The notes under the pieces were generated by a model that had not been told where the DNA came from, did no database searches, and saw only the letters and a program-made list of their open reading frames with translations. Shown here piece by piece: positions 12,190 through 60,474 of a stretch of DNA of 64,000 nt. A program made the translations under genes and the position numbers. Source of the stretch: Mobula hypostoma (taxonomy: Eukaryota); the NCBI RefSeq assembly GCF_963921235.1, contig NC_086097.1, positions 69,690,001 to 69,754,000 of the forward strand, read 5' to 3'. Each line of letters starts with the position of its first letter. Positions within the stretch are counted from its first letter, which is position 1.

Positions 12190-13010
12190 TGCGGTGCCCA
12201 AAAGGAATCGAGTGGGCGACTCGTCTCCGGTACACCGTGGACTGCAGGTTTGTCCTTATTAAAATTCGGAATGCCGAGTCGGCCGCATTGACAGGTGGGC
12301 TGTCGCGCGCACGCCGGGACCCAGAACCTCGCGGAGCGGGCGGACGAACACGAGCACGAGCGCGCGCTTGGCGAGAGCGGCGCAAGCCCACTAACACCTC
12401 CCCCCCCGCGCCTTCTCCTCGCCCACAATGCAGCGCGCCGCCATATTCTGCAGAAAGAATGTCCATGGCGGCTCGCTGGTGGCGCTGAGGCTCGTAGGGC
12501 TCTTCTCCTCCCACTAAATGTAACAGAAATAACAATAATCTTATTAATTAATAATAAACATGGATGAACACCCCATAGGGATGTCCTCTCATGCTAATCC
12601 TAGCGGCCCTTTGCTGGGCCCGGGAAACAATGGCAACGGCGTGAACCACAACGGCGGCGGGGTTCGGCAGCCGCCGGCTCCGCAGGAGGAGCCGCAGCGG
12701 CCCCAATACACCATCCCCGGGATCCTACATTACATCCAGCACGAATGGGCCCGCTTCGAGATGGAGCGAGCGCACTGGGAGGTGGAGAGAGCCGAACTCC
12801 AGGTAGAGTGACACAGGGCAGCGGATGCGACACCGGGGGACAGAGGGGAGGCTACCCGAGCTTACAGTGAGCCGAAGGGTTTGCGCTGATTGCCTGGCGG
12901 GAACCGACGTTGGCGGCCGGGGGTTAGGGGTTGGAGCGGCGGCTGGTATTTACCCAGATGTGGAAGCCTCCTCGCCGTCGCCATTTTGGTTTCCAATATG
13001 GCGTCAGCCT
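12190..13010. promoter_or_regulatory. CpG island and shared promoter region of STRN3 and AP4S1
   Basis: The strongest non-repeat GC/CpG-rich stretch in an AT-rich window. It has NRF1-like GCGCGC runs and YY1-like motifs (CCGCCATATT ~12438, CCATGGCGGC ~12463, CGCCATTTTG ~12979, AATATGGCG ~12995), and lies at the 5' ends of two divergent genes. Confidence 0.8.
12560..12802 (+). CDS. STRN3: Striatin-3 (SG2NA) coding exon 1
   Basis: MDEHPIG...QYTIPGILHYIQHEWARFEMERAHWEVERAELQ is the striatin N-terminal caveolin-binding/coiled-coil region. Donor CAG|GTAGAG. Adjacency to AP4S1 matches known vertebrate synteny. Confidence 0.96.
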
Positions 13011-22800: not shown

Positions 22801-25165
22801 TTGAGAGATCCAAAATAAATTAAATTTTGTGATCTGCAATTTTTCCAGTTTTGGAACTGTAACAAATAACTTCACAAATAAATAGAATTTAGAATAGGAC
22901 TATTGCAAGTGAGTAATGAACTTGAAAAGAAACTCTTTAAATACAGTTGGTTAAATGGTTGAAAGGCCAAGGGACTTCGGTTTGAAGATTGGAGTCTGGG
23001 CTCATTTGAGGCTTTCAAGGCTTCATACCTGGGATGATACCTGTAACTCAACTTTTCCTTCATTTGTCCTTTTTTTTTGCTTGTAAAATATTTTTAGTTT
23101 GGTTGTGAAGGGCATACTTTCCAGTTTTGTTACCAGGTGCATTTTTGTTTTCAGAATCTATTTTTAAATTTATTTCTCATTGTGAGCTGTAGAATTTGAA
23201 TATGTGAAGCAACGTTTCTGGAAATTATTTTTACTTAGGCAAAACAGCCAGCAAATGTGCTTAATAAATCATTATGGGGTTGAGGATGAGAAGCACACGC
23301 AGAAAAGTGGAATAATTAATGTTTGTGGAAATCAGGAGGTCTTGAATGGTGAATTGTGAAATATTGTACTGAAAAAGATCGCACATTTATTACTGTCTCT
23401 CTCGCTAGGTAAGATTTTATTGGCATATTTCTTAACAAATGATGTAGCTATGTCAAATTCTGAACAGTTGCTTAAGCACAATGAATGTTTTGTAGATACT
23501 GGGCTCATTACAATTATTCTAATTATTTTTCTCACTATTTATACTTTAAAATTATTTCAGCCATGAATACAACAGGATTTTATGCTGTTTTGCAAGGTCA
23601 CTTATTATTATATAACGATAGTTATGTGAGAGGATTATTAAAAAGCAAAATGCTGGAGGTACATACTTCACAGGTCATGCTGTATTTTTGGGAAGAGAAG
23701 CAGTTGACTTTTCACATCGGATGAAACTTTAACCCTTTTCCCCCTCTCCACAGTGGGTGCTTGATCGGCAGAGCTTTTCCAGCATTTTCTGTTGTTATTT
23801 CAGATTTCCCAGCCTCTGCAATTTCTAAGCCTTTCTGAGGTTGTTGAATTCCCTATTCATTGGTCACTGATACAAGGCCCTGCCTCCTGTGATTTTAATT
23901 TTAGCAGTGCTGTTATATGAGTATCATTGTTTTCAGGTGACTTAATTGTTTTGCTTAGAATTATTCATGGCTGAAGATAGATTTACTGCGATTTCATTTA
24001 TAATTTGTCAGGTCCCAGAGAATTTTTTTTTGCATATTTCATGTCACATATTTACATTAGTTTTCATGTCCAGGAAAGTTTTACATTTGTTGCGCATTGC
24101 ATGCTTTCAACACATTTTTAATTCGTATTTGGTCTGTTGAACACCTTGTTCAAATTGTCAAAATAAAGGTAAAGTTAACTGACTTTAAATTAGAACTTCT
24201 AATGATTCATCCACATTTGCATTTAATTGCATTTTCTTAGTTTAGGAGAGCTTATTGGAAAGTTGGTGAATTTATTAAAATAATTACATAGCTTAAGCTT
24301 GTTTTATTAAGCAGGCATCGAGGGTACAATGAATATCTTTTAAGAACATGCTGCCTGGCCTGCTGCGTTCACCAGCAACTTTGATGTATGTTGCTTGTTA
24401 AAGTGATGTCATGTTTTCTAGCTGAAATTTCACCGGTGTGAACAAGGTTTATGAGAGCTGTGGAAGGAAGAGAAAGAGCATTTTTTTTCAGCTCGTTGAT
24501 TTGAATAGAGAGTACTGCATGATGTAAGAATGCATTTTAAGTTATAATATTATAAAGGAGAAAATAAAATTCTTCGTTCTTGGATTTATCATTTGAACTG
24601 TGAACATCCAACATAACTGAGTGGGTTACACACTGTCATTTCAGCTCTGGGAATTTGTGATTTTCTTTTTACAGATTCCGGTAGCTGAATATGTTCATAA
24701 TTATTTTACACTGGAAGTGAATAATTAGTATGGGAAGAATAGAAATATATTTTTCAGTGGGTGCTTTTAAATTTGTGACTGAATATGTTGTTTAGATCGG
24801 GTGAAGGGAGTAAGTATCTAATATACTAGTTGATACAGGGTCCTGACTTTAGGTGCATGTGTTATCAATAAAAAAAACTAAAATAACTGTGCCCAGAACA
24901 CATGCACCCTTACGATTCAAACATACTTTATCTCTTTGTGCATAAGGAGAACAGCATGGCTCCTGTTACCACTGTTCCAAAGCCAGGACAAAAAACTGCT
25001 GTTGTTATGTAGAATTGGCATATCAGTTATGGATATTGACTATTTGTAAATTGTATATGTTTGAATTCCTTGCTTGCAAGATCAAACACGAGGAAATCTG
25101 CAGATGCTGGAAATTCAAGCCACTGGTGAACGCAGCAGGCCAGGCAGCATCTCTAGGAAGAGGTA

Positions 25166-25203
25166 CAGTCGACGTTTCGGGCTGAGACCCTTCGTCAGGA
25201 CTA
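25166..25203 (-). ncRNA. Minimal type I hammerhead ribozyme motif
   Basis: Minus strand UAGUC-CUGACGA-AGGGUCUCAGCCC-GAAAC-GUC-GACUG, with an intact core. Confidence 0.8.
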
Positions 25204-26067
25204 ACTGAAGGAAGAGCTAGTAAGAGATTTGAAAGTGGGAGGGGGAGGGGGAGATCCAAAACGATAGGAGAAGACAGGACGGGGAGAGATGGAGCCAAGA
25301 GCTGGACAGTTGATTGGCAAAAGGGATATGAGAGGATCATGGGACAGGAGGCCCAGGGAGAAAGAAAAGGGGGAGGGGGGGAAAAGCCCAGAGGATGGGC
25401 AAGGGGTATAGCGAGAGGGACAGAGGGAGGAAAAGGAGAGAGAAAGAAAGAATGTGTGTATATAAATAAATAACGGATGGGGTATGAGGGGGAGGTGGGG
25501 CATTAGCGGAAGGTGGTGTTTCTCCAACCTGAGTATGGCTTCATCTTTACAGTACAGGAGGCCGTGGATAGACATATCAGAATGGGAATGGGATTGATTC
25601 GCTGAACACCTACGCTCTGTCCTCCAGAGAAAGCAGGAACTCCCAGTGGCCCACACATTTTAATTCCACGTCCCATTCCCATTCTGATACGTCTATCCAT
25701 GGCCGCCTCCACTGTCAAAGTGAAGCCACACTCAGGTTGGAGGAACAATACCTTGTATTCCGTCTGGGTTGCCTCCAACCTGATGGAATAAACATTGACT
25801 TCTCAAACTTCTACTAATGCCCCACCTCCCCCTCGTACCCCATCTGTTATTTATTTATATACACACATTCTTTCTTTCTCTCTCTCTCCTTTTTCTCCCT
25901 CTGTCCCTCTCACTATACCCCTTGCCCATTCTCTGGGTTTTCCCCCCCTCCCCCTTTTCTTTCTCCCTGGGCCTCCTGTCCCATGATCTTCTCATATCCC
26001 TTTTGCCAATCAACTGTCCAGCTCTTGGCTCTATCTGTTAATGCCCCACCTCCCCTAACCCCATACG

Positions 26068-26104
<37 letters not shown>

Positions 26105-26340
26105 CTTTTTCTCTCTTTTTTCTCCCTCTGTCCCTCACTATATCCTTGCCCATCCTCTGGGCTTCACCCCTCCCCCTTTCTTTCTCCCTAGGCCTCCCAT
26201 CCCATGATCCTCTCATATCCCTTTTGCCAATCACCTGTCCAGCTCTTGGCTCTATCCCTCCCCCTCCTGTCTTCTCCTATCATTTTGGATCTCCCCCTCC
26301 CCCTTCCACTTTCAAATCTCTTACCAGCTCTTCTTTTAGT

Positions 26341-26378
26341 TAGTCCTGACGAAGGGTCTCGGCCCGAAACTTCAGCTG
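26341..26378 (+). ncRNA. Degenerate hammerhead motif (stems I and III mutated)
   Basis: UAGUC-CUGACGA-AGGGUCUCGGCCC-GAAAC-UUC-AGCUG; the GUCGAC segment is changed to UUCAGC. Confidence 0.6.
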
Positions 26379-26469
26379 TACCTCTTCCTAGAGATGCTGC
26401 CCAACCTGCTGCGTTCACCAGTAATTTTGATGTGTGTGGCTTGCAAGATCAAACGCTGTTCACAACAGA

Positions 26470-31619: not shown

Positions 31620-32872
31620 ATCATATCTCTGAAGATGGTGAGTAAATTGTCCTTGTTGAGTCCCAACACCTCTCTCCATAACTGATTTCTGGACTTAGAA
31701 CAAGCTGGAGGAACTCAGCAGGTCGGGCAGCATCCGTGGAAAAGATCGGTCGATGTTTCCACGGATGCTGCCCGACCTGCTGAGTTCCTCCACCTTGTTG
31801 TGAGTGTTGCTTTGACCCCAGCATCTGCAGATTATTTTGTGTTTATGATTCCTGGACTTCCTGACAGAAAAGTCACAGAAGATATTTAGCTCTATCAGGC
31901 TGAGCACCGGTGCTGATCCCCAGTGCTATGTGCTTAGTAGCCCACTACTGTTCACGCTGCTGACTCATGACTGCACTGCTAGACCTAGGTCATACTGAAT
32001 CATCAAGTTTGCTGATGATACAACAGTGTTGGCCTCATCAACAACAACAACGAAATGCCATACAGAGAGAACGTAGAGTGGCTGGTAGAATATTGTGGGC
32101 ACGACAACTTGACGTGGACAAATCACGGGACGATTGTGGACTTTAGGGAAGTGTAGACTGACTACTACTCACTGAACGTACACAGTTCCTCTGCAGAGAG
32201 AGTTAGGAGCACCAAGTTTCTGGGAGTGCACGTAACGAATGATCTCACCTGATCCATCAACACCACCTCTTTGGTCAAAAAAGCACAGTAAGATCTCCAC
32301 TTTCTCAGGAGGTGAAGGCTGAGTGGGGCTTCTCCCCCACCCCTACCCCCATTTTAACCTAATTTTTACAGGAGCACCATTGAGAGTGTCCTGATCAGCT
32401 GCATTACCATCTGGTACAGGAATTGCAAGGCAACTAACCATAAGTCCCTATAAAGAATCGCGAGGACTGCTGAGAGGATCATCGGGGTCTCCCTTCCACC
32501 CACTAGAGATATTTATCAGGAGTGCTGCGTACACAGGCCCTTGGCATTGTCAATGATCCCCCTCACCCATCCAATAATCTCTTTGACTCTGTTAGGATGG
32601 AAAACAGCTTCTTTCCCTGGGTCTTAAGACTACTGAACTCTCTGCCACCACTGAGGTCTCATCATGTATGAAGTGCCAGTAATGTTATACTGTTTATATT
32701 TTAAACTTGTATCATATATGCATCTTATTATTTTTTAATTTATTTGTGGTAATATTACTCTGTTTTATATGTCTGAGTTATATGTAATGTGCTGTGCATC
32801 TTGGTCCAGAAGAATGTTGTCTTGTTTGGCAGTATACATGTGTGTGGTTGAATGGCAATAAACTTGAACTTG
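31620..32872 (+). mobile_element. Rex1/Babar-like LINE fragment, host of the hairpin element
   Basis: Degenerate GAxQCYVLSPLLFTLLTHDC and IIKFADDTTV; tail GGCAATAAACTTGAACTTGA. Confidence 0.8.
31697..31845. mobile_element. Miniature hairpin element built from two inverted Penelope-type pLTR tails, inserted in a Rex1-like LINE
   Basis: 44-bp near-perfect arms at 31699-31742 and 31756-31799 with a 13-nt loop. Flanked by TGAT(T/T)(T/C)CTGGACTT-type 14-bp direct repeats with one mismatch (31683-31696, 31846-31859). Confidence 0.8.
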
Positions 32873-33155: not shown

Positions 33156-33639
33156 CAAGTGGGATCTCCCCGTGCCCACCCATTTTAATTCCACTTCTCA
33201 TTCCCATTCCGATATGTCCATCGATGGCCTCCTCCTCTGTCATGATGAGGCTATACTTAGGTTTGACAACACTTTGTATTCCATTTGCGTAGCCTCCAAC
33301 CTGATGGCATGAACATAGCTTTCTCATTTTTATGGCCCCCACCCCCCACTTCTCCATTTCCCATCCCCTTTTCCCTCTCTCACCTCATCTCACCACTCTA
33401 CTTCCCAGATCTTTACTTCATGCTTCTCCTCTAGGTTTCGCTATCACCTGGTGGTTCTCTCTTCTTCCCCCCACCTTTTAAATCTACTCCTCAGCTTTTT
33501 TTGTCCAGTCCTGCCAAAGGATGTCAGCCTGAAATGTTGACTGTACTTTTTTCCATAGATGCTGCCCGGCCTGCTGAGTTCCTCCAGCATTTTGTGTGTT
33601 GCTTGGATTTCCAGCATCTACTGATTTTATCTTGTTTGT
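33156..33639 (+). mobile_element. Older single Penelope-like 3' fragment
   Basis: Similar to the GIY-YIG C-terminus and pLTR of 46050-46625. 13-bp direct repeat AACTGTTATCAAA at 33143-33155 and 33640-33652. Confidence 0.82.
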
Positions 33640-41499: not shown

Positions 41500-42270
41500 T
41501 AAAAAGAAAGACAAACTGATCCTCAATACCCCCTTGTGCAATTGGATTCTGGATTTCCTCACTTGCAGACCCCAGTCACTTCGAATTGGCAAAAACATCG
41601 GCACAATCTCTCGGCACAGGTGCACCACAGGGATGTGTGCTTAGTCCCCTGCTCTAATCGCTTTACACCTATGACTGTGTGGCTAAGTACAGCGCCAACA
41701 CCATTTTCAAGGTCGCTGATGACACCGCTGTTGTGGGCCTTATTAAAGATGGTGATGAATCATCATACAGGAGAGACATTGAAAATTTGGCTGAGTGGTG
41801 CCATAACAACAACCTCTCGTACAATATCAGCAAGACCAAAGAACTGATTGCAGAGGTCCATGAGCCAATACTCATCGAAGGAGCAGAAGTGGACAGGGTC
41901 AGTAATTTTAAGTTCCTGGGTGTCACAACCTCAGAGGACCTGTCCTGTCCATGATATAAATGTAATTGCAAAGAAAGCACAACAGTGCCTCTACTTCCTC
42001 AGGAGTCTGGAGAGTTGGCATGTCATCAAAAACCTTGACAAACTTCTGTAGAAGTGTGGTGGAAAATGTATTGACTGCCTGCAATATGGCCTAGTATGGA
42101 AACACCAAGGCCTTTGAGCAGAAAATCCTACAGAAGGACGTGGAGTTGGCCCAGGACATCACGAGTAAAGCTCTCCCGACCGTTGAGCACATCTGTATGA
42201 AACGTTGTTGTTGAAAGGCAGCATCCGTCATCAAAGATCCTCTCCATCCAGGCCCCATGCACTTTCCTCT
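41500..42270 (+). mobile_element. Rex1/Babar-like LINE fragment
   Basis: [47 protein letters not shown]. Confidence 0.85.
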
Positions 42271-42284
42271 CTCTCTTTCCAGGG

Positions 42285-42532
42285 CGCAGGCCTGGGCAAG
42301 GTTGTATGGCAGACCAGCAGTTGCCCATGCTGCAAGTCTCCCCTCTCCACACCACCGATGTTGTCCAAGGGAAGGGCATTAGGACCCATACAGCTTGGCA
42401 CCGGTGTCATCGCAGAGCAATGTGTGGTTAAGTGCCTTGCTCAAGGACACACACACTGCCTCAGCCAAGGCTCGAACTAGCGACCTTTTCAAGTCACTAG
42501 ATGAACGCCTTAACCACTTGGCCATGTGCCAA
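42285..42532 (-). mobile_element. tRNA-derived SINE with a CORE-like segment
   Basis: Head TGGCCAAGTGG (A box) and AGTTCGAGCC (B box), followed by GTGTCCTTGAGCAAGGCACTTAACC. Confidence 0.75.
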
Positions 42533-42549
42533 CACATTACTGCCATCAT

Positions 42550-42830
42550 ATAGAAGGTACATAATAACACTGAGGAATTTAAAGTTGCTGACCCTCTCTA
42601 CCACTGATCCTCTGAGGACTGACTTGTGGATCTCTGGTTTTCTTCTCCTGAAGTTAGTAGTCTGCTCCTTGTTCTTGCTGAAATTGAGTAAATTTGAGGT
42701 TGTTATGGCACCACTCAGCCAGATTTTCAATATCCCTCCTATATGCTGAGTCATCACCATCTTTGCTTCAGCCAACGACGGTGGTGTTGTCAGCAAATTT
42801 GAATATAGCATTGCTGCTGTGCTTAGCTAC
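42550..42830 (-). mobile_element. Inverted Rex1/Babar-like fragment
   Basis: Minus strand KFADNTT...VERVSNFKFLSV, homologous to 41690-41930. Confidence 0.75.
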
Positions 42831-44291
42831 GTGACAAGATACCTGCACCAATTAAGCGGCATAATGTCCCAAGTAAATAGCTGCCTCGATATATCGGAAC
42901 CCATTGTATTTTATAAGTGATGTGCTGGGCCAAAGGGTTCATTTTTGCACTGTACAACTGTTATGTTGGAAATCACTTGTGCTTTTATTAATTTATCAAC
43001 TTGAAAGAGCAATTATCAGGTATCTCAAACTTCAGTGCACTGTTGATAGATGTCTTGAGCCTGTCATTCAGGATAGCAATTTTCATTAGTGTATTAAGTA
43101 ATTCAACAATTGTGGATATTTTACAAATTCCACTCGTCCTTCCATTGTGTTTATACACTTGTGCTTTCAATGCTGATTGCTGTTATATAATTAGAACTGG
43201 TATATCTATTGATTTCTCATCACTGTTCTATTACCTGCTCTTTATTGCTGTTTAATTCTATAAAATTAATGTTAACTGTGATTGAAGATTGTGTTTGATC
43301 AGCTTTCTCTTTTCCAAAGGCTATAAACATGATTTTAAAAGGGAGCGGGTATAAAGTCTGCCCTTCCTCGTGTTAAGGACAATACTTCAGACTCAGTAAA
43401 AATGAAAAATGAACTGTAACATAGTAAAAGTGATTTATCAAAACTAAAAATATTAGCTGTAGGGGTAGAACAGGGTCAGTTGCCTAATTAAAAGTATGTA
43501 ATAATGAACACAATTTAAGAAATAAAGCATTAATTAGAACTGTAAATTGAATTCAGGGTGTTGTGTAATGGCCTTGAATGAGTGCTGTCTATCATGTTGA
43601 ATGACTTGGAAGAGAAAAATTTGAAGTATTTGGATAGGGAAATCACAGAAGAAGGACAAGCAAAGTTTACTGATTGTTTTACAATATTTAAGAATTATCA
43701 ATAAACATGCACAGGCAGTAGAAGGCCAATGAGTGGAATCGATTAGGAAAAATGCACAATCTTGATAGTTTGCATCTTTGGATAGCAATAAGTCAGCTAG
43801 GTACTTAAATCTGTCAGAAACTTATTGCTAAGATATTCGAAATGGGAGAATTTGACTTGTGATAGTGAGGCCTATACTTGCTTTTATATTGCAGGATATC
43901 TAATACCAAAGTCTGGTAGCATTGAGCAGTTAGATGTGGAAATCCACAGGTTGCTGTTATTCATTCCCTGTGCTTCCACAAAGCATATTGTTGTGACTGT
44001 GTCAGATGTAATTTACTGTTTATCTGTTTGTTTTCACCTTAAATTTTTGAAAATTTAATCTTGTTGAGTGGTGTATTTGACATAATTTCAACTTCCTGTG
44101 CTTTAGTTTTTATTTGTTTGAGATGTTCTCTTTTACCTCAAGTTCAAAGTAAAATTTATTATCAGAGTACATACATGTCACAACATACAAACCTGAGTAA
44201 CAGGAATTCTGCAGATGCTGGAAATTCAAGCAACACACATCAAAGTTGCTGGTGAACGCAGCAGGGCAGGCAGCATCTGTAGGAAGAGGTG

Positions 44292-44329
44292 CAGTCGACG
44301 TTTCAGGCCGAGACCCTTCGTCAGGACTA
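44292..44329 (-). ncRNA. Minimal type I hammerhead ribozyme motif (mirror copy)
   Basis: Exact reverse complement of 46527-46564. Confidence 0.82.
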
Positions 44330-46526
44330 ACTGAAGGAAGAGTAAGTAAGGGATTTGAAAGTTGGAGGGGGAGGGGGAGATCCAAAATGATAGGAGAAGA
44401 CAGGAGGGGGAGGGATAGAGCCAAGAGCTGGACAGGTGATAGGCAAAAGGGGATACGAGAGGATCATGGGACGGGAGGTCCGGGAAGAAAGACGGCGGGG
44501 GGGGGGGGGCCCAGAGGATGGGCAAGAGATATATTCAGAGGGACAGAGGGAGAAAAAGGAGAGTGAGAGAATGAATGTGTGCATAAAAATAAGTAACAGA
44601 TGGGGTACGAGGGGGAGGTGGGGCCTTAGCGGAAGTTAGAGAAGTCGATGTTCATGCCATCAGGTTGGAGGCTACCCAGACGGAATATAAGGTGTTGTTC
44701 CTCCAACCTGAGCGTGGCTTCATCTTTACAGTAGAGGAGGCCGTGGATAGACATGTCAGAATGGGAATGGGATGTGGAATTAAAATGCGTGGCCACTGGG
44801 AGATCCTGCTTTCTCTGGCGGACAGAGCGTAGATGTTCAGCAAAGCGGTCTCCCAGTCTGCGTCGGGTCTCGCCAATATGTAAAAGGCCACACCGGGAGC
44901 ACCGGACGCAGTATATCACCCCAGTCGACTCACAGGTGAAGTGTTGCTTCAGCTGGAAGGACTGTTTGGGGCCCTGAATGGTGGTAAGGGAGGAAGTGTA
45001 AGGGCATGTGTAGCACTTGTTCTGCTTACACGGATAAGTGCCAGGAGGGAGATCACTGGGGAAGGATGGGGGGGACGAATGGACAAGGGAGTTGCGTAGG
45101 GAGCGATCCCTGCGGAATGCAGGGTGGGGGGAGGGAAAGATGTGCTTAGTGGTGGGATCCCGTTGGAGGTGGCGGAAGTTACGGAGAATAATACGTTGGA
45201 CCTGGAGGCTGGTAGGTGAGGACTAAGGGAACCCTATTCCTAGTGGGGTGGCGGGAGGATGGAGTGAGAGCAGATGTACGTGAAATGGGGGAGATGTGTT
45301 TAAGAGCAGAGTTGATAGTGGAGAAAGGGAAACCCCTTTCTTTAAAAAAGGAAGACATCTCCCTCGTCCTAGAATGAAAAGCCTCATCCTGAGAGCAGAT
45401 GCAGTTGCAAAAACGCCATCCCCTTCTCGCAATTCCTCCGTCTCCGCCGCATCTGCTCTCAGGATGAGGCTTTTCATTCTAGGACGAGGGAGATGTCTTC
45501 CTTTTTTAAAGAAAGGGGCTTCCCTTCCTCCACTATCAACTCTGCTCTTAAACGCATCTCCCCCATTTCACGTACATCTGCTCTCACTCCATCCTCCCGC
45601 CACCCCACTAGGAATAGGGTTCCCCTAGTCCTCACCTACCACCCTACCAGCCTCCGGGTCAAACGTATTATTCTCCGTAACTTCCGCCACCTCCAACGGG
45701 ATCCCACCACTAAGCACATCTTTCCCTCCCCCCCCCCGCATTCCACAGGGATCGCTCCCTACGCAACTCCCTTGTCCATTCGTCCCCCCCATCCCTCCCC
45801 ACTGATCTCCCTCCTGGCACTTATCCGTGTAAGCGGAACAAGTGCTACACATGCCCTTACACTTCCTCCCTTACCACCATTCAGGGCCCCAAACAGTCCT
45901 TCCAGCTGAGGCAACACTTCACCTGTGAGTCGACTGGGGTGATATACTGCGTCCGGTGTTCCCGAAGTGGCCTTTTATATATTGGCGAGACCCGACGCAG
46001 ACTGGGAGACCGCTTTGCTGAACGTCTACGCTTTGTCCGCCAGAGAAAGCAGGATCTCCCAGTGGCCACACATTGTAATTCCACATCCCATTCCCATTCT
46101 GACATGTCTATCCACGGCCTCCTCTACTGTAAAGATGAAGCCACGCTCAGGTTGGAGGAACAACACCTTGTATTCCGTCTGGGTAGCCTCCAACCTGATG
46201 GCATGAACATCGACTTCTCTAACTTCCGCTAAGGCCCCACCTCCCCCTCGTACCCCATCTGTTACTTATTTTTATGCACACATTCTTTCTCTCACTCTCC
46301 TTTTTCTCCCTCTGTCCCTCTGAATATACCTCTTGCCCATCCTCTGGGTCCCCCCCCCCCTTGTCTTTCTTCCCGGACCTCCTGTCCCATGATCCTCTCG
46401 TATCCCCTTTTGCCTATCACCTGTCCAGCTCTCGGCTCTATCCCTCCCCCTCCTGTCTTCTCCTATCATTTTGGATCTCCCCCTCCCCCTCCAACTTTCA
46501 AATCCCTTACTCACTCTTCCTTCAGT

Positions 46527-46564
46527 TAGTCCTGACGAAGGGTCTCGGCCTGAAACGTCGACTG
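46527..46564 (+). ncRNA. Minimal type I hammerhead ribozyme motif in a Penelope pLTR
   Basis: UAGUC-CUGACGA-AGGGUCUCGGCCU-GAAAC-GUC^-GACUG has both catalytic boxes, a short stem II, a palindromic ACGU stem III, a GUC cleavage triplet and stem I (AGUC/GACU). Confidence 0.82.
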
Positions 46565-47429
46565 CACCTCTTCCTACAGATGCTGCCTGGCCTGCTGCGT
46601 TCACCAGCAACTTTGATGTGTGTTGATACAAACCTGAGATTCTTTATCTTTATTCTCACATTCATGTGCAATCTGTATTCATCTGTCCTGAAATGTTTAA
46701 AATAGTTAATATTGCCAATAGTGCTTGTTATTTTCAGGTTTGCAGTTTGAGTGAAGTCTTCAATGTGATTAACTCCCTGTTGCTGGATGTCAGGAATGCT
46801 GGCAGCTGACAACAACTGATACCTTCTAAGAATAAATCCATGCTACAAATTATCATGTCCATGAAACAGTTTTTTTTGGGATTAGCTTCACAGGTCTTTC
46901 TTTGGCCACTGACAGAAGACTGCAAGCCTTCAAATGCACGAAGGCCATGGAAAGTAGAACTACTCTCGAATACATGGTTTTATTTGGGACAATTTTCTAG
47001 AATACTCTGTTCTTGAACTAGCAGGCTTTCAGAACATATTTGATTTTTTTTAATGAAGTTTTAGATATAAACAAGTTGGGAGGAAGAGCAGGTGACTGAG
47101 TCACCAATGAAAGTTTAAATTTAAGTGATGGAGCTGCAATTAACTACCAATAATTTCAGGAATAGCAAGGAATACAGTCATAAGTAGATGAGTTAAGTGA
47201 AACTAGAAGCACTGCTTCTTCACAGCTATTGTGACCTTGTTTCAATCAAATGGTTCAGTCTAATGGTGGCACGCAAGGATACAGCAGCTTATCTAGCTCC
47301 CAATAATGATGCTAATTTTAAACTCTTAGATAGTGTTTCAATGTTTCTAGTCAAGACACTACAGTCAACCAAAGTTCCATGAATACAGCATTGCTGAACT
47401 CTGACAAAATTACTTTTAAAGCGACCGGC

Positions 47430-58640: not shown

Positions 58641-59832
58641 CTAGTCCAGGCCTCTATATTACTAATCTCATGAAATACTTTTTCTGCTACCACTGATGTC
58701 TCAACTCATTTACTTCCATTTATGAACAAAACTATAGTTTGGATTGATCTGATCTTTCCTAGAATTAGCTTTCTTGATTTCTATGACATTTTTGATATAG
58801 CCATCAGCAAAAATTTTATAGAATTTAGAGTGTTACGGAAAAATTATGGACAAACTCCCTTGACTGAAAACCTAAGGGGTCTCCTTCTTGAAGAGCACTT
58901 TACTTTTCTAAACAAACTACAGTCAAAAGTGGGAGAAAGAACTGGATCTTGTAATCTCTCCAGGGGTAATGCTGAATAGTTCCTACACAGGGAATTGCAT
59001 CTGCAACACTTGCAACATAACAATGAACAGACCTAAGTGAAATAAATTGCATTATGGTTGGTTGGGACTTTGGAGTGTTCAAAACCTGTTACACCAGTAA
59101 AATATTTTGATAGCTGCTTAATCCACAGCTTCTGTATTAACCAGTTGTTAAATCGTCCAGAAATCTTGTGATTTCCGACATTGAGGAACCACTATTGGCT
59201 ATGCAAATAACAACAAACTCTTAGATATAAAGCACTTTGATCATTCTCACCCCTTCACATTGATTGACATCAGTGGAGAAAAACTTGGGCACAGAATTTC
59301 CTTGGGAACTTTTTTTTAAAAATGATTGCTGAATCTTAAAACTGAGACAATAATTATTTTATGACTTTAAATGAAACTTCTTCAAGATTCTAGTTTCTCC
59401 AACAGTTTGTGAAGTATATTTAGAAAATTAGAGCAGTCTTGGTGGGGGGAGGAATAATGATAAGTTATCTCATAAATGATGCTAGGTGAGTGAACGATAT
59501 AGATTCTTTGTTGAAGAAGAGCAGAACAAGACTTATTCATTGCTTATTGATGCTTACTGCAATAGTGATGGTGTAGAACATAGTTAAAAACCTACTCAGA
59601 GTGAGGCACTCCTGACAGAAGTATTTGCTCTACATTTGCCAAGCCCTTCACAATTGACAAAACTTAGCTGCAGTGAAATAGCTGTTTTTTTTGTTCCATA
59701 GAAAGATTTAAAATGAAAGTCAATATTCTTCTTTACACTTGTATTCCCAATTATTGAGATTTTAGAATTCTTTGTAAATACACCATGATGTTGATTTAGC
59801 TGTTTAATTATTTAATGCATTTTATCTTGCAG

Positions 59833-59936
59833 GCTCGGATAGCATTTTTACAAGGAGAAAGGAAAGGTCAGGAAAACTTGAAGAAGGATCTAGTAAGAAG
59901 AATAAAAATGTTAGAATATGCTTTAAAACAAGAAAG
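59833..59936 (+). CDS. STRN3: STRN3 coding exon 2 (104 nt)
   Basis: ARIAFLQGERKGQENLKKDLVRRIKMLEYALKQE(R) continues exon 1 in frame; acceptor TTTATCTTGCAG, donor AAG|GTAATT. Confidence 0.97.
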
Positions 59937-60474
59937 GTAATTGTTTAAAAGTACTATTTATACTGAATATTTTCAACTGGTGGCCGTAACATTGAAATAA
60001 TGAATTTAATTTAAATAAAATCCAGTCAAAATCTATTAGTTTTCAGCAAGCTTGTATTAATTCCTCATTTGAATATTTGTATTTGCATGGATATTCACTG
60101 TTAATTATTTAAAAAAATTATTGATTGGTTCTGAGTTTTTATTTCAGTATTTCTTGCAAACTGCTTTATTGTCAATTTTTATGAAGCATTTGATACACAG
60201 ATTGATTACAAGGGATATTTTGACCTAACATTTGTATGTGGGAACCCTTTGCTTGTGTGGGCATTTATGCTTTTGACTTTGTGGTAAGACTTTGTTCAAC
60301 TTTCATGTGCTTCTGAGTTAATTTGGTGACAATTTTCCATTTGGATTCATGTGAAAATTAGCTAGTTAGACCTAATGAGAGAAAATTTTAGCAGCTCAGC
60401 AACTTCAATAAATATTGGAAGGAGGCAGGGAGTCGACATTTTTTACTTGTTTCTAAAGATTAAGTGCCACATTT

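Follow-up and report, generated by a model that had tools for sequence, protein, structure and literature searches.

The hammerhead ribozyme motif in the first intron of a striatin gene of Mobula hypostoma is accompanied by an exact antisense copy of itself, which raises the question of whether the second copy serves to silence the first. The original prediction was that it does, the inverted structure being a built-in off switch that lets such insertions persist in host introns. We analysed the window, that is, the whole stretch of 64,000 nucleotides of contig NC_086097.1 (69,690,001 to 69,754,000, forward strand), together with the copies of the same family elsewhere in the genome. Our reading, to which we give a probability of roughly 0.86, is that the locus holds one head-to-head, 5'-truncated insertion of an abundant Penelope-like element (PLE) in STRN3 intron 1, that its hammerhead is the standard one of the family and is predicted to be inactive, and that integration probably left the mirror arm as a neutral by-product.

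The host gene is represented in the window by two coding exons:

12560 to 12802, plus strand: first coding exon of the STRN3-like striatin host gene (Pfam Striatin at 12710-12802; GT after 12802)
59833 to 59936, plus strand: second coding exon of the host gene (Pfam Striatin at 59827-59943; AG before 59833)

The insertion sits between these two plus-strand Striatin exons, in the 47-kb intron 1. Exon 1 best fits human Striatin-3 (PDB 7k36_B, E=2e-18), its sole PDB match, and the last 33 residues are identical. We take this match to separate the gene from STRN and STRN4. The proposed location in the STRN3 pre-mRNA holds as far as the gene can be read from its exons, with both hammerhead copies in intron 1 of a plus-strand STRN3-like gene. 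Likewise the antisense copy, at 44292-44329 and hence 5' of 46527-46564 on the gene strand, would come first in the predicted transcript, as had been suggested. Assembled contigs of sequencing runs gave no cover over exon 2, those over the arms were repeat pile-ups, and a 258-nt contig identical to the right flank came from a run that was only guessed to be RNA; all three are neutral as to expression.

A fourth striatin match in the genome, L001 (G000:C22:70826581-70826751), covers profile positions 1-57 in a single open frame that runs through the point where the other three striatin genes have the boundary between exons 1 and 2. It is possibly an intronless retrocopy.

The two hammerhead copies are as follows:

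46527 to 46564, plus strand: minimal type I hammerhead motif, from motif reading and folding (predicted cut 46559/46560)
44292 to 44329, minus strand: the other hammerhead copy, on the strand opposite to the host gene, identical to 46527-46564 when reverse-complemented

The sense copy reads as described, with CUGAnGA, GAAA, U16.1 and the GUC triplet all intact, cleavage predicted after 46559 and stem III reduced to a palindromic ACGU at 46555-46558; the complement is also exact, as claimed. Stem I has five pairs, one of them G.U, and closes the motif (type I), while stem II has three pairs and a U.G after a single bulged A, which is the unpaired base on the 5' side of helix II. The G10.1-C11.1 pair is absent in this subfamily and replaced by a G10.1.U11.1 wobble. 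In the folding model, stems I and II of the isolated 38-mer form with a probability of 0.55-0.98. A hammerhead descriptor search had been proposed as a check, and its outcome was divided: the core features were found, whereas a scan with 4227 Rfam models gave no hammerhead match up to E=5 and only miRNA models on hairpins. The hammerhead call therefore rests on the motif and on the published descriptor. The motif is not due to chance, since a reversed control pattern had 0 matches genome-wide. The core, the helices and the GIY-YIG, target-site duplication and tail layout of the element that carries it all fit the proposed minimal type I hammerhead of a PLE.

That element could be resolved into the following parts:

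44185 to 44197, plus strand: left copy of a 13-bp target-site duplication (TSD), the 13-mer being found only at 44185 and 46626
44199 to 45402, minus strand: left (antisense) arm, the 3' part of a 5'-truncated PLE with its tail (96.5% identity to the right arm over 1180 columns)
44199 to 44230, minus strand: tail of about 32 nt, on the left arm only (the inverted repeat begins at 44231)
44626 to 45222, minus strand: left-arm frame with a CX4CX2C linker and GIY-YIG endonuclease (PF01541 E=0.0076, under the curated cut-off)
45403 to 45448, plus strand: unpaired 46-nt overhang at the junction, right-arm element sequence in frame with the arm ORF
45449 to 46625, plus strand: paired part of the right (sense) arm, without tail, forming the inverted repeat with 44231-45402
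45714 to 46232, plus strand: right-arm frame with a CX4CX2C linker and GIY-YIG endonuclease (PF01541 E=0.0027, under the curated cut-off)
46626 to 46638, plus strand: right copy of the TSD, the same 13-mer as at 44185

The linker of the plus-arm frame reads CKRNKCYTC, and this GIY-YIG frame is frameshifted relative to the upstream RT-thumb part. In the window the element is truncated before the RT that would precede the endonuclease. The motifs QxxGxxMG and YIDD, which we take to be of RT type, are present in a longer copy, L257; its RT frame was blank in Pfam and PDB searches, and its Atlas neighbours at 0.95-0.97 carry PF26215, one set having RVT_1 in 19% of its members. We considered the 46-nt overhang as a foreign spacer and rejected this, as other copies continue in element sequence before 45405 and the peptide stretch of the overhang recurs in L257. 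A non-LTR retrozyme, made of tandem head-to-tail non-coding units, was also discarded because the arms are inverted and carry ORF remnants. The PLE landed within an older high-copy repeat (44140-44197 and from 46626 onward), other copies of which have, after 44197, the same seven letters as follow the right TSD copy. No contig was found to be joined across the insertion as an empty site.

Three further copies of the family (L120, L187 and L206) share about 160 nt beyond the tail, which are likely the coding start of the next tandem unit.

The head-to-head arrangement is a common one in this family. The first 100 exact matches included 11 divergent neighbour pairs less than 5 kb apart against 1.3 expected, and genome-wide about half of the resolved arms (75/140) are paired. 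A TSD of at least 7 bp, with a mode of 13-14, surrounds 29 of 59 pairs, as compared with 0.4% of mismatched flanks, and since the search tolerated just 5 nt of slack some TSDs were probably missed. In all 78 paired rows examined just one of the arms carries the tail, and the ends of long arms are at most 30 nt apart in 15 of 47 rows (2.7 after shuffling). Moreover, in 32 of the 34 rows compared, representing 30 insertions, an arm diverges less from its partner than from other insertions (0.039 vs 0.056). Both arms come from one event, and probably from one source element. Two independent insertions, or an assembly artefact, facing apart by chance are hardly credible at this locus. The arms do differ at 2.8% of sites, plus indels, as independent insertions would, but a single 13-bp TSD around the whole unit refutes that origin, the pattern recurs across the family, and non-identical arms are unlike a collapsed assembly repeat.

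The mechanism that we propose for the single event is that both cut target ends would be extended from one source element, each from one of two start sites, and that the extended copies would then be joined at their truncated ends, giving head-to-head arms. A PLE protein is reported to cut both strands and to extend each of them, starting from two sites in the RNA that lie on either side of the tail (PMC11167929). Alternatively, the first cDNA might fold back, which would have the same outcome; self-priming of this kind has been proposed (PMC3846280). With arms placed head to head, the antisense copy comes first in a transcript from whichever strand, so the order is fixed and "antisense first" carries no information. 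The locus itself is ordinary and the layout of its insertion is already published, the PLE unit being described as having an inverted 5'-truncated copy, a one-sided tail of 30-40 bp and a TSD (PMC8557442, PMC3846280); opposite-strand minimal hammerhead pairs 100-700 bp apart have also been reported (PMC4209133).

The hammerhead is equally common. The exact 38-mer has 29,805 copies in the 3.48-Gb genome (14,868 and 14,937 by strand), and a relaxed pattern has 79,524 matches. With the 38-mer so abundant, an intact core is the default in young copies and needs no local explanation. The G-C form of 10.1/11.1 is found in 4,395 copies against the 29,805 with G10.1.U11.1. We compared variants of the motif, for which the labels "dead" and "tolerated" are our assumption from hammerhead biochemistry. 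The dead G8A form has 1,271 copies, the tolerated C7T form 2,008 and the tolerated loop II form 1,938, so that G8A is about 35% rarer than the two tolerated changes and there is no excess of inactivation, contrary to what selection by the host for inactive cores would produce. Tolerated variants may also spread from active source elements, as dead ones would not. Of such changes, G8C alone was shown to be inactive in PMC11167929. A count made for transcription-linked asymmetry of CpG changes gave 30 vs 20, too few to tell.

We then come to the off switch itself, that is, the idea that intact sense hammerheads harm the pre-mRNA, that an antisense arm neutralises them and that only paired insertions survive in introns. 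The antisense arm should be able to sequester the ribozyme, as had been suggested: in the folding model the motif by itself has -7 to -11 kcal/mol and the 38-mer duplex -80, which makes the duplex overwhelmingly stable, and stem I is left with a probability of about 1e-50. The same idea had intact cores enriched beside antisense arms. To test this, five patterns were sampled (the exact one, two tolerated CpG variants and two with dead cores), the first 30 loci of each being scored by a single rule, with 1.5 kb read per side and 10 of 150 loci unresolved. An antisense arm lies beside 44 of 82 intact and 31 of 58 dead cores (p=1.0), in rows that are partly dependent, some being two arms of one insertion, and that for the common patterns sample the start of contig C1. 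Core state is thus unlinked to pairing and the expected enrichment did not appear, which in this sample is the outcome that the original prediction had itself named as refuting it. A first-pass pairing count with a cruder rule had given 30/60, 29/58 and 13/30.

The intron sample comprised 20 gene bodies (myosin, kinesin and striatin) of 1.45 Mb, partly extended past the last matched exon, with gene strand set by exon matches; base skew was too weak a proxy for strand and was dropped. These gene bodies contain 184 PLE 3' ends, 92 sense and 92 antisense. When 100 paired arms and six unpaired ends near the edge of a stretch are left out, the solos are 39:39, the young ones 15:10 and the intact ones 5:5; solos strictly between matched exons are 28:27, and stricter pairing gives 42:42. 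All solos together reject any sense fraction up to 0.35 (p<0.005), while for the 10 intact solos a true sense fraction of 0.3 would give P=0.15, so that a moderate depletion is compatible with them. The five intact sense solos, two of them the exact 38-mer, lie in myosin and kinesin gene bodies with no antisense arm beside them. The density of PLEs in introns equals the genome average (exact copies 13 vs 12.4 expected, relaxed 36 vs 33.2).

One result leans towards the off switch, namely pairing in 17 of the 24 resolved arms of the intron sample as compared with 75 of 140 in the genome-wide one, a comparison set that is not purely intergenic (odds ratio 2.1, p=0.13, focal pair left out). Since solos have no strand bias, a real excess of intronic pairs would not be specific to the ribozyme. 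Retrozymes have been reported as under-represented in Xenopus introns (bioRxiv 10.64898/2026.07.22.740005), which also favours the idea, but a cut intron can still be spliced (PMC4410947, citing Dye 2006). With solos evenly divided between strands, core integrity unlinked to pairing and no excess of dead cores, we consider it very unlikely that the inverted structure is an off switch for persistence in introns. In the open-access literature searched, no paper was found to propose or test an antisense off switch for PLE hammerheads.

Nine young intronic pairs have only one intact hammerhead, and in eight of them it is on the gene strand. This skew (two-sided p of about 0.04, calculated by hand and post hoc) is predicted neither by neutrality nor by the off switch.

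Without the arm, too, the hammerhead fold is predicted to be improbable, activity having been judged from folding models and from the ribozymes of other species. For 46505-46575 the MFE is -14.6 kcal/mol against -8.2 with the hammerhead constrained, P(stem I) is 0.03, and the fold that is preferred is a local hairpin:

46513 to 46543, plus strand: predicted local hairpin, the core paired with an upstream pyrimidine tract, from the folding model

This hairpin is favoured over the hammerhead fold by 6-9 kcal/mol. A modelled stem-swapped dimer, at -11.5, is weaker than two folded monomers at -22. Minimal hammerheads were described as inactive as monomers and slow as dimers (PMC4209133), and that of the Anolis PLE needs the PLE protein and shows no RNA ends at the cut site (PMC11167929); the same inactivity of PLE hammerheads is reviewed in PMC6765202. 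By analogy with these systems, we predict that in the host pre-mRNA the hammerhead stays inactive whether the antisense arm is present or not. The arms would zip into a 1.2-kb hairpin in the pre-mRNA and this would change nothing, because a lone hammerhead that lacks stem III and has its core hidden would need a partner copy or the PLE protein. The two other sense hammerheads in intron 1 have broken cores, so no intact cis partner was found in that intron.

The window contains other repeats of this kind. At 25122-26440 the same intron has a second, older inverted PLE pair, whose arms are 87% alike. It has the stem II variant with G-C, and the sense hammerhead of this pair, at 26341, is broken in the stem III/I region. 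An older PLE family has left a small hairpin at 31702-31796, in which two of its 3' ends are folded back near the predicted cut site; an unpaired sense copy at 33506-33625, also from an older PLE family, has a degenerate core. At 41679-42830 there is an inverted repeat with arms of 130-170 nt and 76-79% identity, inside LINE-like RT remnants.

The local hairpin invites another explanation, which is compatible with the neutral by-product and would place a switch in the element itself. The upstream pyrimidine tract would pair with the core, and the ribozyme would fold only in RNA whose start or splice junction is at the 5' edge of stem I, or that is refolded by the PLE protein. The tract belongs to a putative signal:

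46504 to 46529, plus strand: 3' splice-site-like signal read from the sequence (branch-like motif, pyrimidine tract, CAG at 46523-46525, TAG at 46527-46529)

Only 2% of 200 upstream shuffles pair as strongly as the real tract. An acceptor-like signal has the same place in older families: in 29 copies of such families the required AG is preceded by C 25 times and by T three times, and 80% of the upstream bases are pyrimidines. The intron of D. virilis Penelope ends at helix I (PMC4209133), and the Penelope promoter and intron are treated in PMC2377424. However, composition by itself lets a pyrimidine tract pair with a run of purines, and in the older families the pairing is barely above that of shuffles (0.45 vs 0.32; higher in 15 of 29).

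The 5' ends of the copies bear on the same question. In 40 of 83 young arms the 5' end falls within q1060-1107 (window-equivalent 46513-46560), where the stop rate is 0.015 per nt against 0.001-0.004 elsewhere; counted per insertion, 25 of 56 end in this edge zone. Stops are most frequent on the 5' strand of stem I, in tailed and tailless arms alike. This pile-up favours a local switch, whereas the spread of the junctions over about 15 nt and the fact that edge-starting solos abut the TSD without a common upstream exon speak against it. All considered, we regard such a switch as unlikely. Its stricter form, in which the splice-site pyrimidine tract locks the core and the ribozyme folds only in RNAs beginning or spliced at the stem I edge, seems to us a little less probable again. 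If this lock were true, a single RNA end would explain both the harmlessness of tens of thousands of intact intronic hammerheads and the near-half of new copies that stop there.

Two other sources of the pile-up were rejected. Ribozyme cleavage is not the main source of truncated copies, as only 2-3 of the 83 young arms start at the cut site, and splicing to a common first exon does not agree with the unrelated flanks of the edge-starting solos. No paper on a PLE 5'-end pile-up at the hammerhead edge was found in the same open-access literature.

The neutral by-product reading has consequences beyond this gene. It describes a vertebrate genome in which PLE hammerheads number no fewer than 30,000 in perfect form and some 80,000 in recognisable form, and in the sampled introns these show neither a strand bias nor a need for an antisense arm. 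The negative test gives support at the population level to the view that minimal PLE hammerheads spare host RNAs, for which the earlier basis was in vitro. An off switch, if true, would have explained the inverted layout of PLEs through selection; the data favour the mechanism of insertion. As to how PLEs copy themselves, the concentration of 5' ends at the edge of the hammerhead offers a clue that can be tested.

Among known systems, the motif most resembles the minimal hammerheads of metazoan PLEs (Cervera and de la Pena 2014, PMC4209133). It shares with them the intact core, a helix I of 4-5 bp, one unpaired base before helix II and a helix III that consists only of the palindromic 15.2-16.2, as well as the location within the terminal repeat of the PLE, an occurrence mostly as dispersed single copies, and opposite-strand pairs. 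It differs in helix II, which has 3-4 pairs here and 7-8 in S. mansoni, and in that G10.1-C11.1, given in that paper as a typical trait but outside its descriptor, is G.U in the dominant subfamily here. The copy number is well above the 4,000 of coelacanth and 9,000 of Xenopus that were called remarkable in the same paper, and the motif is homogeneous.

The whole insertion agrees with the units of endonuclease-positive PLEs (PMC8557442, PMC3846280, PMC2377424) in its head-to-head arms, tail on one arm, short TSD and 5' truncation. The TSD mode is 13-14 bp here, however, as compared with 8-10 bp in rotifer PLEs, and about half of the arms are paired here. There is also the 5'-end pile-up at the hammerhead edge, for which the available parts of these three papers contain no description. 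Poseidon of Anolis (PAc; Frangieh 2024, PMC11167929) also has a hammerhead, in its pLTR, and two 3' ends about 30 nt apart that define the tail; PAc belongs to a different clade, and we assume by analogy that its in vitro behaviour would apply here. With its CX4CX2C linker, GIY-YIG-like frame and, in the longer copy, upstream RT-type motifs, the element is most like the Neptune/Nematis type of PLE, in which CX2-5CxxC precedes a C-terminal GIY-YIG (PMC8557442), a likeness in linker and domain layout that embraces both names.
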